Source: an uncultured Dehalococcoidia bacterium
GTDB taxonomy: Bacteria > Chloroflexota > Dehalococcoidia > Lucifugimonadales > UBA1123
Direction of reading: 5' to 3'
DNA length: 64,000 nt
Assembly (NCBI GenBank): GCA_964537915.1
Contig: CAZIDM010000007.1
Span: forward strand, 8,879-72,878
A program made the translations under genes and the position numbers. The stretch's first letter is position 1. Each line of letters starts with the position of its first letter. Shown in pieces: positions 41,569-48,978 of this stretch. The notes beneath the pieces are model-generated. The model did not search any database. It saw only the letters and a program-made list of their open reading frames with translations, and was not told the origin of the DNA.

Positions 41569-41609
41569 GGTTCGCCTGTCAGCCAGTCGAAAAGATCACT
41601 CTCCAATCC

Positions 41610-42038
41610 TCAGAGAGTGACCAGGGATTCCTCTCCGGCATCCCTGACGACTCCCGCAGGTACACTTCGGTCGAGGGTTACTAAGCGGGCGCTATGAGCG
41701 ACTGCCAGAGCCAACAGGTAAACATCGGTAACCTGTCCCGGACCCAGCAGACTTTGGCTGTCCACCAAGTCGCCATCAAGCAGGCTGATGTCATCGGCAA
41801 TGAACTGGTGATACGGAGTAGACACTGCCGATCTCAGTTTGTCGATAGCTTCCTCGATGCGCAGTGAGTTCGGATATCGTGGCAACGAGAGAATGCGGAC
41901 ACAGCCGTTCTGGGTCAGCGGACAGGAAGCCCATCCATCCTGAATGTGATCTGAGAGCCACTCCGCCACCAATTCGTGACTACCATGGTTCTCGTCAATC
42001 AGAGCTATAAGGACATTGACGTCAAGCAATGCCCTCAT
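41610..42038 (-). CDS. vapC: PIN-domain toxin VapC
   Basis: MRALLDVNVLIALIDENH...VTDVYLLALAVAHSARLVTLDRS. Confidence 0.85.
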   Translation of the reverse strand: MRALLDVNVLIALIDENHGSHELVAEWLSDHIQDGWASCPLTQNGCVRILSLPRYPNSLRIEEAIDKLRSAVSTPYHQFIADDISLLDGDLVDSQSLLGPGQVTDVYLLALAVAHSARLVTLDRSVPAGVVRDAGEESLVTL

Positions 42039-42041
42039 GCA

Positions 42042-42296
42042 TCAGAACCCAAGCTCTTCACGGAGTTCATTAACCAAGTCATTAGTGACGGCGCGCCCTC
42101 CGGCTGGAATGGGCTTGAATCCGTACAGGTCTTTCGTCCCTCTCTGGGGTCTGTCCAGCACTTGGGCCGCATCTTGAGCATCTGCCAAGATGATGTTCCG
42201 CACCGAGACGGGTATCGAGCGTCCTGCAACAGGAGCTAGCCATTCGTTGGAGGCCAGTTCTCTTGCGTCGTTCAGTTTGATAGTTGTGGTTCTCAT
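42042..42296 (-). CDS. vapB: VapB-type antitoxin
   Basis: 84 aa, ending 3 nt before vapC. The MRTTTIKL... start and the C-terminal ...AVTNDLVNELREE tail are typical of VapC partners. Confidence 0.65.
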   Translation of the reverse strand: MRTTTIKLNDARELASNEWLAPVAGRSIPVSVRNIILADAQDAAQVLDRPQRGTKDLYGFKPIPAGGRAVTNDLVNELREELGF

Positions 42297-42580
42297 GGGG
42301 GCATCTGTTCCAGCTCAGCATCTAAGCGGCTCAGATAGATCTCTACAGGCTCCTGATCATCGCTTGGCGCAACCTCGAAAATCAGATGGTGCTCTCTCTT
42401 CGGACAAGACTCACTGGGTTCAGCCCACATCCCGGTCTTTCTGAGAACGTCTTCCACATTTATGTTGACGGGCTCACCGACGCGAAGATAGAACACGACC
42501 GCATCAAAGGTCGCACCGTCCATATGGACTCTCTTGACCTCGTACTCGTGAGACGAGGCATCGTCGGCTGGGTATCTCAT
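42293..42580 (-). CDS. hypothetical 95-aa protein, translationally coupled to vapB
   Basis: Its stop TGA overlaps the vapB ATG (ATGA at 42293-42296). No family recognised. Confidence 0.5.
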   Translation of the reverse strand: MRYPADDASSHEYEVKRVHMDGATFDAVVFYLRVGEPVNINVEDVLRKTGMWAEPSESCPKREHHLIFEVAPSDDQEPVEIYLSRLDAELEQMPP

Positions 42581-42739
42581 GGGTCTTCACCATCGCCCCC
42601 AGTCACAATTTGCCACTGCACAGACGATAGGTCAATCATAGCACGGGCCTGTTGGGATGCTTCACGCTACGGGTCTTCAAACTCACAAAGCTAGAAGATC
42701 CGTCAGAACCAATCACTCAACAAAACTTTGATTCTGTAC

Positions 42740-44059
42740 TCAGGAACTGGTCACCACGACCCAAACATCTTTACCTTCAATGAATATCTCGGAGCCAATG
42801 GTCAGTGTAACTTGGCCCTCAAAGGCGTGGATAATGGGCTGTTCACCGCGGCTGGGCAACTCCACCCTGATTGTGTCATCTGACTCTATCCCGTGGCCGC
42901 TTTCCCAGCAGACGAGTCTGTGCGTCCATGGAACCGAGTCGATCGAATCACGCATCCGTCCGTGGTTTTCCGTGACCCGGGAGGGAGGTTCGCCTACCAG
43001 TCGTATTGTGCGAGGCTCGTCATTTACCTTGATCATGCAAGTATCCGACAGAAGCTGAGCAAGATAACACTGAGCGTCTGTTCGGGTCCGGGCGCGGACG
43101 ATTTTGCCCTCCGTTCCTACTCGTAGAGGAAAAGTGTGCCAGATGCCGTCTTGGGCTCGTTGTATGTATCCGAGGATGGTTCCTCCCGGTGTGAGCACCT
43201 TCCCGGTCTGCTTCTTTGGCGGATCGCTCCATTCGATTCGTGGAATCACGTCTCTGGGTTGTGGGGGCAGCACGTCCATTCTTGACAGCAAGTACCTGAT
43301 GGCGGGGTCTGACAATTGGTTCAGCGAATGGAAAGCCTCAGAAACCATTCTGTTCATGAATTCGTCGCCGATTACGAAATCCTGTTGGAAAGCTTGGTTT
43401 AGGGCTTCTTGGCAAGATGGGTGGCTTAGGACCCAATCTATGTAGCGCCTTACGGTCGCCTCGTGGTCAGACCCTGGGCTGAAAGCCAGATGCACGGGTG
43501 GAAGTAGGGCCTCGCGTACTGTCCGTTCAACTCGGGCTTTAATGGTCTGTCCATCCGAGGAGTTTGGCCCGCACAGGATGATGATTGCAAGTAGGATCTC
43601 CCGGTGAATCGTCGGCCACACTTTGCGAAAGAGCGACTCTTCCTGCTCCGGGTTAAGTTCCCAATATCTCATCCTATCGAAGGCCTTTGCCGTGCCTACG
43701 GTTTCTAAGTAGGCGTTCAGGGATCTGAGGTGCCCTAGGCCTGGGTGGTTGGGGTTTAGGCCGTAGAATTCGGTCGCGTCATCAAAGATCTTTTCTAGGA
43801 ATTCGACCTCAGTGCGGTCGAATTCACGGAGTTGGCGCAGGTGTTTGTGGAGGTCATGATGGAGTAAGAATTCGCCGCCGTGCTTTTTGATGAGGAATTT
43901 CAGGCCTCGTTCAATAGCTAAGTGGACTATCGGCACCCGGTTGCTGATTTGGACAAACGTCGTTTGAGTAGGAGTGTCCGGCTGGAGGGGCGGGTCGTCC
44001 AAGATTTGCAGCGCGTCGCCAAGTGAAAACTGTACGGCGAATTCTTCCACGAGGTACAC
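42740..44059 (-). CDS. hypothetical 439-aa protein (possible N-terminal HEPN-like helical domain and beta-rich C-terminal half)
   Basis: Long ORF with lower G+C than the core genes. HLAIERGLKFLIKKHGG and RKVWPTIH (Rx6H) are weakly HEPN-like. No confident family. Confidence 0.55.
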   Translation of the reverse strand: MYLVEEFAVQFSLGDALQILDDPPLQPDTPTQTTFVQISNRVPIVHLAIERGLKFLIKKHGGEFLLHHDLHKHLRQLREFDRTEVEFLEKIFDDATEFYGLNPNHPGLGHLRSLNAYLETVGTAKAFDRMRYWELNPEQEESLFRKVWPTIHREILLAIIILCGPNSSDGQTIKARVERTVREALLPPVHLAFSPGSDHEATVRRYIDWVLSHPSCQEALNQAFQQDFVIGDEFMNRMVSEAFHSLNQLSDPAIRYLLSRMDVLPPQPRDVIPRIEWSDPPKKQTGKVLTPGGTILGYIQRAQDGIWHTFPLRVGTEGKIVRARTRTDAQCYLAQLLSDTCMIKVNDEPRTIRLVGEPPSRVTENHGRMRDSIDSVPWTHRLVCWESGHGIESDDTIRVELPSRGEQPIIHAFEGQVTLTIGSEIFIEGKDVWVVVTSS

Positions 44060-44229
44060 CTGCCCCTGTTACGAGTCCCACGAGTCTATTGGAGTGACCA
44101 TTGGCGAAACAAGGTAGGTCCGTCCGCATATTCCAGTACGGAGTCAGGGCATGCCGCAACAGTCGGGAGAGTCCGGTCGCCGCTCAGGTTCTGAACCAGG
44201 AGCCGATTTCTGTAGTCAACTACGAGCCC

Positions 44230-44658
44230 CTATCGAGACGCCCGCCGTTCAATGTACTGCTGCACATCCGACAGCAGGGCTGGGACGTCTGTGGACGCGG
44301 CAGACCATACTACGTCGCTGGCCACGACCCACGGCCTGTGGACCAGAATCGCGCGCATGGCGAAGAGACCGACCCAGTTGACACTCGGAAGCCCGTCGCG
44401 GATCTCGGAGGGCAGTCCCCTTGCCGCGTCAGCCAGGAGGCCAATCGCGTGGTACACAGCGAAGCGGGATCTGAGGTCGCCGTCCAGGAAGTAGCGTCGG
44501 TGGTTCCTCGATAACCAGATCACCACCTCGCACCAGTGTTCCACTCGGCGTAGGTGGTCGTGTGGTTCTGGGCCGGACTCAGACGGCTGTGTAGATGACG
44601 TCACGGCTGTCCTTCTCGTGCCGAGCCCACTCGGCGCCGTCCGCAACGTGCCTTTCAA
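44230..44658 (-). CDS. hepT: HepT-like (DUF86/HEPN) toxin
   Basis: ...IGLLADAARGLPSEIRDGLPSVNWVGLFAMRAILVHRPWVVASDVVW carries the RxxxxH HEPN motif. The true start is probably the internal GTG near 44544. Confidence 0.65.
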   Translation of the reverse strand: MKGTLRTAPSGLGTRRTAVTSSTQPSESGPEPHDHLRRVEHWCEVVIWLSRNHRRYFLDGDLRSRFAVYHAIGLLADAARGLPSEIRDGLPSVNWVGLFAMRAILVHRPWVVASDVVWSAASTDVPALLSDVQQYIERRASR

Positions 44659-45019
44659 GGATGCCCTTGTCCATTATCCACACACGGCTGTCCAGCAGCT
44701 CCTCAAGGTCACTGACCACGTCGAAGTGGTGCTTCTTGAAGCCCCACTCGTAATCGCCGGGACCGAAGTCCGCTATCAGGAACAGGTCGACTGCCGCGAA
44801 CGGGTCGCCATCGCTGGTGTGTGCGGCGTCAGCCGGAGGGCGATGCTGGCTGGTATCTATCGACAGCTCAACCAGATCCCACCGCCGACAGATCTCGATG
44901 ACACGGTCGACCGGCAGGTCTTCCCTGGTGAGAAGCGATTTCTGTCCTGACGTGATCACGGGCCTCTCCCCAGAACGACATGGCATCCCGATGGCCTTCA
45001 GTTGGATTGAGTCTACCAA
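44579..45019 (-). CDS. mntA: MntA-like nucleotidyltransferase-fold antitoxin (degenerate catalytic motif)
   Basis: It sits upstream of and overlapping hepT. DLFLIADFGPG...DLEELLDSRVWIMDKG matches the MNT layout, but the GS-x-aRG motif is not evident. Confidence 0.45.
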   Translation of the reverse strand: MVDSIQLKAIGMPCRSGERPVITSGQKSLLTREDLPVDRVIEICRRWDLVELSIDTSQHRPPADAAHTSDGDPFAAVDLFLIADFGPGDYEWGFKKHHFDVVSDLEELLDSRVWIMDKGILERHVADGAEWARHEKDSRDVIYTAV

Positions 45020-45233
45020 CTTTCCGAATTACCGTGAAGGAGCATCGCTGGTTGTCCCCACAACTATTCCAGCGTAATCTGCCGTTGAAGGCCATGACAG
45101 TGACTTCGGCGGCGATGCTGGCATAATATTGGCTGGTGCGAAACCGGCTTTGGTCGTTCGCATGAATCGGCGCCAGGTTTCTGGTCTTCAGTAAACTCAG
45201 TCCCAATCACCTGAACCACACGGAGTTACCAAC

Positions 45234-47175: not shown

Positions 47176-48978
47176 TTGCAGACTAGCATTTTGACGCCGC
47201 AGAATATCTTCTTCCAGATAGTTCGCTACGAAATCCCGGCATTCCAGCGCCCGTATATCTGGACACAGGAACAACAGTGGGAACCCCTGTGGGAGGACGT
47301 GAGCGATATGGCCGATTCGATTGTTGAGAGCGGCCAGACTAGTGCTCACTTTATGGGGGCGATAGTACTGCAGCAGCGTCCGAATCCTACCAATGCCATC
47401 CAGTCCCGCATAGTCGTAGACGGGCAACAGAGACTTACAACACTACAACTTCTGATCGATGCCATCCAAGAGGTATGCGAGCAGAGGGAGCACAAGGGAC
47501 CGGCGGAGCGTCTAGCCCCGCTGGTGTACACGCAGGAGGCTTTCTGGGGAGGTAATCCCGACCTCGCATTTAAGGTGTGGCCCACGATCTATGATCAGCC
47601 AGCTTTCCGTCACGCGATGCAGAATGATCTTCCGAGTGACGAATACAAGAACTCGCGTATTGTCGCTGCCCACAACTACTTCAAGAACAAGACGGAGCAG
47701 TGGCTGGAGGTATTTCGTGAAGAAGACGGCCAGCAGGAGAAGGCAGCATCTGCCCTAGAACGTGTGGTGACTAACCACCTAGAACTGGTCGTTATCGACC
47801 TTGGACTGGCTGACGATCCTCACGTCATCTTCGAGACCTTGAATGCAAGAGGAACTCCCCTTCTGCCGTCGGACATGATCAAAAACCAGATACTTCACAT
47901 AGCGGGTGTGGGCGCAGAGTACGACGAAGGCAACCAGTCTGATGAGATAGAGCAGCTTTGGGGATTCAGTGACGATTGGTGGAGGCGGGAAATCGGCAGA
48001 GGCCACCAGCGCCGTCCTCGTATCGACGTCTACCTGAACAACTGGCTTACACTGCGAAATAGGTCCGAAACCAAGGCCCACACCGAGTTTGCTGCCTTTG
48101 GCAAGTATGCTAAGAACTCCATAGAAAACGGCACAGCGATACAGGAAATAGCAGAAGACATCGGACGGCTCGGTGGCATCTATCGTGACATTGACCAGAG
48201 TCGCATAAATCTGATCGAACCCTTTCTATACCGGCGTCGGGTAATGGGCATTGGGGCTGTGATTCCGACGTTGCTGTGGCTCCTCTCCTCCGAAGTTCCT
48301 GAGTCCCAACTGTTGAGAAGCATTACTTTCCTAGAGAGCTACATGATCCGACGCATGGCCTGCGGGATGAGTGCCAGGAGCTATGGGCAGTTGTTCCTCG
48401 GTCTGACCAACGAGTTGGAGAATGCGGGTCCAGGGCTTGCGGGCAATACCGTGGTTCGTTTTCTGAATCAGCAGACCGCGTACGCGAACCTGTGGCCGGA
48501 CGACCAGACCCTTCTAGACACATTCCTTACAAAACCAATGTACGGATCCCTTGCTCAGGGCCGACTGAACCTGATCCTACAAGGCATAGAGGGCGAACTG
48601 CGAACGGCAATGTCCGAAACACAGGCCGTGCCGCGCAACCTCCATATCGAACATGTGATGCCACAGGGTTGGATGGCGCATTGGAACCTACCAGACGAGG
48701 TTGAAGACAGGGAAATTGCGGTTGCCAGGCGCAACCGGATGATCCACTCGATGGGGAATCTGACGCTGGTGAGTCAGAGACTTAATACTGCGCTGTCCAA
48801 TGCACCCTGGGAACAGAAGCGGGTGACGCTGGACAAGCATGCAGTCCTCCACCTGAACAAGGATCTGACGCTCAATGCCCCGCCAATGTGGGATGAGTCC
48901 GCGATTGTCGAACGGGGAAAGCGCCTCCACGAGGCAGCGATCAAGGTCTGGCCCCACGCTAACAGCGCAATGCAATAG
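47176..48978 (+). CDS. GmrSD-like type IV restriction enzyme (DUF262 + DUF1524/HNH-like)
   Basis: YEIPAFQRPYIW and VVDGQQRLTTL form the DUF262 ParB-like part. The C-terminal HIEHVMPQGW...GNLTLV...LN forms the DUF1524 part. The segment has low G+C. Confidence 0.8.
   Translation: MQTSILTPQNIFFQIVRYEIPAFQRPYIWTQEQQWEPLWEDVSDMADSIVESGQTSAHFMGAIVLQQRPNPTNAIQSRIVVDGQQRLTTLQLLIDAIQEVCEQREHKGPAERLAPLVYTQEAFWGGNPDLAFKVWPTIYDQPAFRHAMQNDLPSDEYKNSRIVAAHNYFKNKTEQWLEVFREEDGQQEKAASALERVVTNHLELVVIDLGLADDPHVIFETLNARGTPLLPSDMIKNQILHIAGVGAEYDEGNQSDEIEQLWGFSDDWWRREIGRGHQRRPRIDVYLNNWLTLRNRSETKAHTEFAAFGKYAKNSIENGTAIQEIAEDIGRLGGIYRDIDQSRINLIEPFLYRRRVMGIGAVIPTLLWLLSSEVPESQLLRSITFLESYMIRRMACGMSARSYGQLFLGLTNELENAGPGLAGNTVVRFLNQQTAYANLWPDDQTLLDTFLTKPMYGSLAQGRLNLILQGIEGELRTAMSETQAVPRNLHIEHVMPQGWMAHWNLPDEVEDREIAVARRNRMIHSMGNLTLVSQRLNTALSNAPWEQKRVTLDKHAVLHLNKDLTLNAPPMWDESAIVERGKRLHEAAIKVWPHANSAMQ

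Follow-up and report, generated by a model that had tools for sequence, protein, structure and literature searches.

The stretch of DNA analysed here (the window) is 64,000 nucleotides long and comes from an uncultured Dehalococcoidia bacterium (contig CAZIDM010000007.1, positions 8,879 to 72,878). Its minus strand carries, at 42740..44059, a 439-aa gene whose product belongs to an unnamed accessory protein family that is almost confined to Dehalococcoidia/Chloroflexota, and that joins a divergent N-terminal HEPN-T-like domain to a C-terminal module composed of an alpha/beta subdomain and a small beta-barrel. The unnamed family, its fixed architecture and a C-terminal module without detectable relatives are new here, while the superfamily and its logic are already known. 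We put at about even odds the interpretation that this protein is a self-contained HEPN ribonuclease (RNase), which would be regulated or targeted by its C-terminal module and would serve in abortive infection or some other genetic conflict.

The open reading frame (ORF) is present on the minus strand as the initial annotation of this DNA had described it. Comparison with close orthologues (73-77% identical) gives a ratio of nonsynonymous to synonymous substitution rates (dN/dS) of 0.28-0.33, and the ORF is therefore judged to be a real gene under purifying selection. That annotation had called the protein an orphan, a label that does not survive database searching: a word-indexed search with the 439-aa protein gave 50 clusters (best E 5e-228, 34-78% identity), whose sole name was "hypothetical protein" of Dehalococcoidia, and an exhaustive phmmer search of 1.84 billion representatives gave 206 proteins with E <= 1e-3, of which 66 reach E <= 1e-30; most of the matches are about 440 aa long and aligned end to end. 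The 206 come almost entirely from metagenome-assembled genomes of Dehalococcoidia, SAR202 and Chloroflexota, a number of which are sponge-derived. It had also allowed for an ORF that has no homologues and non-coding codon statistics, and the relatives and the dN/dS values just given show neither. In contigs from one genome per species we found 51 loci, 50 of which are titled Dehalococcoidia, SAR202, Chloroflexi or Chloroflexota metagenome-assembled genomes and one Bryobacterales. When the 66 members were scanned, no family name emerged from Pfam, NCBIfam, PADLOC or PHROGs (the last three gave only singleton noise). Two of the record labels, Chloroflexi bin125 and SAR202 bin22, we take to be bins of the Aplysina aerophoba study. 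The title of that study (PMC5649159) reports "unity in defense" among the bins.

Two in-frame GTG codons stand at the front of the gene, the annotated start at 44059 (439 aa) and a second at 44050 (436 aa). The true start is probably the latter, because the relatives begin with MEEF..., which matches the second GTG; residue numbers are nevertheless counted from 44059 throughout. A promoter and terminator scan was uninformative.

The assignment of approximately the first 190 residues (43490..44059, minus strand) to a divergent HEPN-T (PF05168-like) domain is supported by profile, profile-profile and fold comparisons as follows: Scanned singly, 34 of the 66 members match PF05168 (best E 1.7e-5), no other family recurs among them, and one homologue has a precomputed PF05168 match. 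An hhalign comparison of the family's N-terminal alignment with a canonical HEPN-T alignment, built from the PF05168 matches in related genomes, gave a probability of 87.6% and an E of 3.5e-6 over the helix-2/insert/helix-3 stretch; the same N-terminal alignment run against a HepT-like (PF01934) alignment as a negative control gave a probability of 0.5%. The AlphaFold 2 (AF2) model of the 439-aa protein (30 homologues; pLDDT 84, pTM 0.74) is helical to residue 262 and beta-rich from 274 to 435, in agreement with the helical front and beta-rich end that had been read from the sequence before. When this model was compared by Foldseek with the BFVD viral models, it matched a 145-aa phage "HEPN domain-containing protein" with a probability of 0.99 and a target TM-score of 0.65 over 167 columns. 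The HEPN hint of the initial annotation was therefore correct in substance. Of the kind of check that it had proposed (HHpred or Foldseek), the hhalign and BFVD comparisons gave HEPN matches and the PDB gave none, and a PDB sequence-profile search also gave no matches at E <= 10.

Residue conservation was counted over the 66 family members, which are 22-78% identical. H46, H68, Y132 and E154 are present in all 66 and R131 in 65; E50 is found in 63 (D in the other three), K54 in 64 (R in the other two), R176 in 59, H152 in 58 and R41 in 53 (K in four more). The segment RVPIVHLAIERGLK (43898..43939, minus strand, coordinates verified by translation) contains both R41-x4-H46 and E50-x3-K54, and E50 and K54 both lie inside a predicted helix of residues 31-59. 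The motif Ex3[KR] is typical of helix 2 of HEPN domains (PMC3710099), and E50-x3-K54 has exactly this form. One of the two HEPN-reminiscent strings noticed earlier, AIERGLKFLIKKHGG, is the true conserved Ex3K stretch and aligns to HEPN; the other, RKVWPTIH (R145...H152), which had been read as Rx6H, is not a family motif, as R145 occurs in only 19 of the 66 members. R131-Y132-W133 (43661..43669, minus strand) is the counterpart of the "TRYP" of canonical HEPN-T. Its arginine is retained, no histidine follows 5-7 residues downstream and positions 136-138 are variable, so the canonical Rx4-6H is not found. R41-x4-H46 is located in helix 2, not at the end of helix 3 where Rx4-6H canonically lies; the idea that it is a displaced HepT-type motif was excluded by the hhalign comparison with HepT given above.

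The invariant H68 (43856..43858, minus strand) lies in the loop past the Ex3K helix, aligns to the histidine in the "tHdL" of canonical HEPN-T, and is a candidate alternative catalytic histidine. AF0298-type HEPN-T proteins and AbiV are without the motif histidine; for them it has been proposed that another conserved histidine, contributed by an insert between helices 2 and 3, restores an active site together with the motif arginine (Anantharaman et al. 2013, PMC3710099). H68 is just such an invariant histidine from the helix-2/3 insert, and by its residue pattern the family appears to fit this AF0298/AbiV arrangement.

The HEPN-T-like domain is followed by a middle helical region (about residues 191-263; 43271..43489, minus strand; AF2 helices 198-262) that ends in a conserved D251-P-A, with D251 in 61 and A253 in 65 of the 66 members. 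The C-terminal alpha/beta subdomain (residues 264-356; 42992..43270, minus strand), defined by the AF2 model and by conservation, is built of four to five strands, a helix and a hairpin; G297 in it is invariant, and D304, W307 and D328 are conserved. The small beta-barrel comes after it (residues 379-435; 42755..42925, minus strand), was placed by the AF2 strands, and has W385, H389 and G415 conserved. Residues 264-439, when modelled separately (43 sequences), gave a pLDDT of 83.5 and a pTM of 0.77. A Foldseek search of the PDB with this module gave no convincing match (best probability 0.47, over 49 residues), and for the barrel the only sequence hints are weak KOW-like ones (two of the 66 members, E 0.11). 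Region and profile searches for the module in other architectures returned only the same family or fragments. Because it occurs solely with this N-terminus, the HEPN-T plus alpha/beta plus barrel architecture of the family is fixed. Two tiny uncharacterised phage proteins in BFVD, A0A6J5SA48 (51 aa) and A0A6G5YDB4 (71 aa), also align to a portion of the full-length model (probabilities 0.99-1.0, root-mean-square deviations 1.4-2.8 Å, 23-24% identity), which may correspond to its C-terminal small barrel.

A test for a partner gene was made by BLAST clustering of the five genes on either side at 55 loci. It found no conserved partner: no neighbour family is common to more than seven of the 55 loci, and at least 11 loci have opposite-strand genes on both flanks. 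Small same-strand ORFs do lie 1-28 nt upstream at several loci, and these are mutually unrelated (HicB, resolvase fragments and unknowns). The conserved, co-oriented and tightly linked antitoxin gene of type II toxin-antitoxin (TA) systems was thus not seen across the loci compared, nor was a nucleotidyltransferase found among the recurrent neighbour families; the minimal nucleotidyltransferase (MNT)-like gene of the window belongs to HepT. From this gene order the 439-aa type of gene appears to be stand-alone and often monocistronic.

The distribution of the gene is patchy and its evolution fast, which is the behaviour of an accessory gene. Seven of the 30 species of the genus have it, two of these (G011 and G021) as a short remnant only, and outside the genus it was found in one of 31 other genomes of the order. 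Copies within the genus can be just 35-37% identical, which implies that the gene was acquired there repeatedly. Genome G023 contains an intact copy and another that is interrupted by about 10.5 kb. The split copy (G023:C4:56323-56580 and 67074-68141; L054) is broken at residues 87/88 by inserted DNA, and further truncated or frameshifted family copies are those at loci L046, L049, L052 and L055 and the G011 and G021 remnants.

The 101 immediate neighbours of the family include six N6_N4 methyltransferases, four Mrr_cat and three Eco57I-type proteins, as well as Type ISP, SMODS, UvrD and SNF2 proteins, transposases and resolvases; as a background, a ~3.6-Mb genome of the genus has about 14 copies of the methyltransferase family PF01555, which amounts to some 0.4% of its genes. 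Homologues were also seen in the vicinity of HicAB, where a type IIG restriction-modification (R-M) enzyme and an EVE protein are present too, near a ubiquitin-like Bub/ThiF cluster, and near transposases accompanied by a ResIII helicase. The defence/TA setting to which the initial annotation drew attention recurs at unrelated loci, where DNA methylases, Mrr-type nucleases, Type ISP, SMODS, HicAB and transposases are found beside homologues. In one sub-clade (L029, L030, L037 and L043, 63-77% identity) the gene is convergent with a ~550-aa DPPF DNA methyltransferase at approximately the +1 position, across a gap of 18-132 nt; this adjacency may be a lineage-specific functional link to R-M.

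How might such a protein work? The predicted metal-independent RNase centre would be formed by the Ex3K pair (E50 and K54), H46, H68 and R131-Y132. The helical linker, alpha/beta subdomain and barrel would most likely keep the RNase inactive or target it, a trigger (an infection signal, or bound RNA or protein) would release it, and its release would lead to growth arrest or abortive infection. Cleavage of RNA, control by the C-terminal module and an anti-phage phenotype are inferences here; the reality of the gene, its family, the HEPN-type fold and motifs, the fixed architecture and the genomic behaviour are drawn from the comparisons above. A narrower proposal, which we offer only tentatively, is that the gene by itself makes up an undescribed anti-phage (abortive-infection) system in Chloroflexota, in which an AF0298/AbiV-style HEPN RNase would be under the control of a C-terminal sensor with a fold that is unrepresented among solved structures.

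Several observations weigh against an active, anti-phage RNase. The canonical histidine is missing, and the HEPN domain could be non-catalytic, like several HEPN-T domains. The match of the window protein itself to PF05168 has an E of 0.065 and 13.8 bits, below the Pfam cut-off of 22 bits; the hhalign match to HEPN-T spans just 54 columns; and no HEPN structure emerged when the whole AF2 model was compared with the PDB by Foldseek (best E 0.017, probability 0.18). The enrichment of R-M, TA and transposon genes beside the family is suggestive rather than proven, because the one sub-clade with conserved convergent synteny supplies four of the six methylases, and these are not independent. Two genes away on either side the neighbours are already mostly metabolic, and for this reason the settings of the family are to be regarded as small islets rather than large islands. 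PADLOC-DB v2 contains no match for the window protein and gave singleton weak ones among the 66 members, and no relatives on phages, plasmids or viral contigs were found by tblastn of phage and plasmid collections or by a pattern scan of IMG/VR.

In the window the gene sits in a variable islet between a conserved DAO-type oxidoreductase gene and a conserved BVMO gene (41569..45233), which forms its context and is not one system. The minus-strand gene order that had been described for this islet is all there: a 146-aa ORF (45019-44579), a HepT-like gene (44658-44230; PF01934, E 1.2e-8), the 439-aa gene, a 95-aa ORF (orf95; 42293-42580), an 84-aa ORF ("vapB") between orf95 and the PIN gene, and the PIN protein gene itself (vapC; 42038-41610; PF01850, E 1.7e-7). 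The 146-aa ORF, orf95 and the 84-aa ORF have no Pfam match, so the earlier labels "mntA-like" and "vapB" lack support from that side, but both of the genes so labelled accompany their partners in relatives. The islet can be divided into three modules: vapC-vapB-orf95, the 439-aa gene, and HepT with the MNT-like gene. The G+C content at third codon positions (GC3) is 0.61 in the 439-aa gene, 0.57-0.60 in vapC, vapB and orf95, and 0.74-0.75 in HepT and the MNT-like gene, compared with 0.82-0.85 in the flanking DAO oxidoreductase, BVMO and epoxide hydrolase genes. The lower G+C that had been attributed to the whole run is thus found in the 439-aa gene and the vapC-vapB-orf95 module, but is only mild in HepT and its companion; the composition is confirmed to point to a foreign origin.

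The gap between the DAO and BVMO genes is 3669 bp in the window and about 780 bp (an empty site) in genomes G005 and G007. In G001 it contains MNT, HepT and an orf95/vapB fusion remnant, and in G006 MNT, HepT, a DDE transposase and a PIN remnant. In G029 both TA modules are intact (81-88% identity) and a different gene, of 293 aa, stands exactly in the place of the 439-aa gene; the N-terminus of its product is PD-(D/E)xK-looking and has a weak DUF5655 match. At locus L050 the 439-aa gene is accompanied by orf95, vapB and a PIN remnant, and HepT and MNT are absent. Within the genus, the DAO-BVMO site is a hotspot of integration or gene swapping, and because G029 has another gene between the two modules and L050 has no HepT or MNT, the 439-aa gene is an independent cassette in this hotspot that is part of neither TA module. 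A functional tie to the flanking HepT/MntA or VapBC accordingly does not hold: a congener has both modules with another gene, and the distant homologues are without them.

Three other explanations of the family were weighed. The HEPN-like domain may be a non-catalytic binding or scaffold module, for which the substrate-binding HEPN domains of nucleotidyltransferases and sacsin are models, and the protein would then be a regulator or adaptor, e.g. one linked to R-M. In its favour, the canonical Rx4-6H histidine is absent; there are HEPN versions that have lost the motif, and HEPN-T domains cluster with R-M operons (PMC3710099); and one sub-clade has the DPPF methyltransferase as a conserved convergent neighbour. 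The two histidines, the arginine, the tyrosine and the two acidic residues are, however, invariant at 22-78% identity, a pattern expected of a catalytic centre; this pattern matches the alternative-histidine arrangement that has been proposed as active (PMC3710099), and the methylase neighbour is absent at most loci. We consider a non-catalytic domain unlikely, and prefer the self-contained RNase. The protein might alternatively be the toxin of a TA pair whose antitoxin has gone unrecognised: this could be an RNA, or a small fast-evolving protein such as that of orf95 or of a short ORF upstream. Antitoxins are common for HEPN toxins, small same-strand ORFs are close upstream at several loci, and orf95 comes after the gene both in the window and at L050. 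Against this, the neighbour comparison described above shows no family in more than seven of the 55 loci, mutually unrelated upstream ORFs, and at least 11 loci where the gene is flanked on both sides by genes of the opposite strand, and in G029 orf95 remains with vapB and vapC where the 439-aa gene is absent. From this comparison of neighbouring genes a hidden antitoxin seems to us improbable, and the stand-alone RNase is again preferred.

The last explanation, that HepT/MntA or VapBC beside it has the gene as its third component and that the islet is one multi-gene system, derives from the same-strand adjacency of the gene to both modules in the window and at L001. The comparative data already contradict it. 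G029 retains both modules around the 293-aa gene, MNT and HepT occur without the 439-aa gene in G001 and G006, and L050 has the gene without HepT and MNT; moreover, these partners are present at none of about 50 distant loci, and intergenic gaps of ~160-180 nt separate the 439-aa gene from its neighbours on each side. We regard a three-part system as very improbable indeed.

The family resembles the AF0298-type HEPN-T domains (PF05168, PDB 2hsb; PMC3710099) in the helix-2 Ex3K, in the histidine directly after it ("tHdL" compared with H68-D-L), in an "RY" (TRYP compared with R131-Y-W) without a downstream histidine, and in occasional R-M linkage. Canonical members of that group are, in contrast, single-domain proteins of 120-140 aa that are often paired with an MNT, whereas the 439-aa family has an insert of about 30 residues before RYW, extra invariant residues (R41, H46, H152 and E154), a fusion to about 250 more residues and no MNT partner, and the window protein falls below the Pfam cut-off. 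HepT/MntA (DUF86, PF01934; type II/VII TA), with its example at 44230-44658, belongs to the same HEPN superfamily and occupies the same sort of islet, but HepT has a canonical RNxxxH and an MNT antitoxin and the 439-aa protein has neither, the hhalign probability between them is the 0.5% noted above, and neither the window protein nor any of the 66 members matches PF01934. AbiV, the lactococcal abortive-infection HEPN protein, is about 200 aa long and is without a beta-rich C-terminal module. It shares with the family a stand-alone HEPN domain, the lack of a partner gene and a putative alternative histidine (PMC3710099), but no HEPN-clan Pfam model other than PF05168 recurs in the 66 members and the phyla differ. 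In the multidomain HEPN defence RNases RnlA/LsoA, Csm6/Csx1 and PrrC/RloC, an HEPN RNase is joined to non-catalytic regulatory or sensor domains in one polypeptide, a logic that the family would follow. The HEPN domain of the 439-aa family is, unlike theirs, N-terminal, there is no RnlB/Dmd-type partner, and its attached domains have no detectable relation to CARF, the ABC-ATPase or the RnlA NTD/NRD.

HEPN RNases are a recurring effector in TA, abortive-infection and CRISPR systems, and to these the family adds a fixed HEPN-T plus alpha/beta plus barrel architecture in Chloroflexota (sponge symbionts included), a phylum in which defence systems have hardly been examined experimentally. An active protein would be a compact self-regulated RNase, possibly with a new sensor fold, and would allow the "alternative histidine" form of the HEPN active site to be put to the test; an inactive one would be one more uncharacterised accessory gene product. 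To our knowledge no direct test of that active site, which was proposed in 2013, has been made.

The remaining observations concern the other genes of the islet and its genomic surroundings. In G029 and L050 orf95 stays beside vapB and vapC (80-84% identity), whether or not the 439-aa gene is present; orf95/vapB coordinates in relatives are L088 825-1112, L050 11657-11941, L001 7424-7642 and L087 259-477; and in L001 and G001 codons 1-21 of orf95 have become joined, through a deletion, to codons 17/18-84 of vapB. The conservation of orf95 with vapB and vapC apart from the 439-aa gene and the orf95-vapB fusions support its placement, as a putative member, in the VapBC module. The 146-aa MntA-like protein seems to be without the usual glycine-serine nucleotidyltransferase motif, yet in four genomes it is kept at 81-86% identity alongside HepT. 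Because its ORF shares 80 nt with the annotated one of HepT, the HepT start probably lies further downstream. A GmrSD type IV restriction gene is found at 47176-48978 in the window. Finally, genomes G001-G015 of the same genus have up to 33 PF01555 N6/N4 methyltransferase matches per ~4-Mb genome, and many PF05168 HEPN and PF01934 HepT copies in each.

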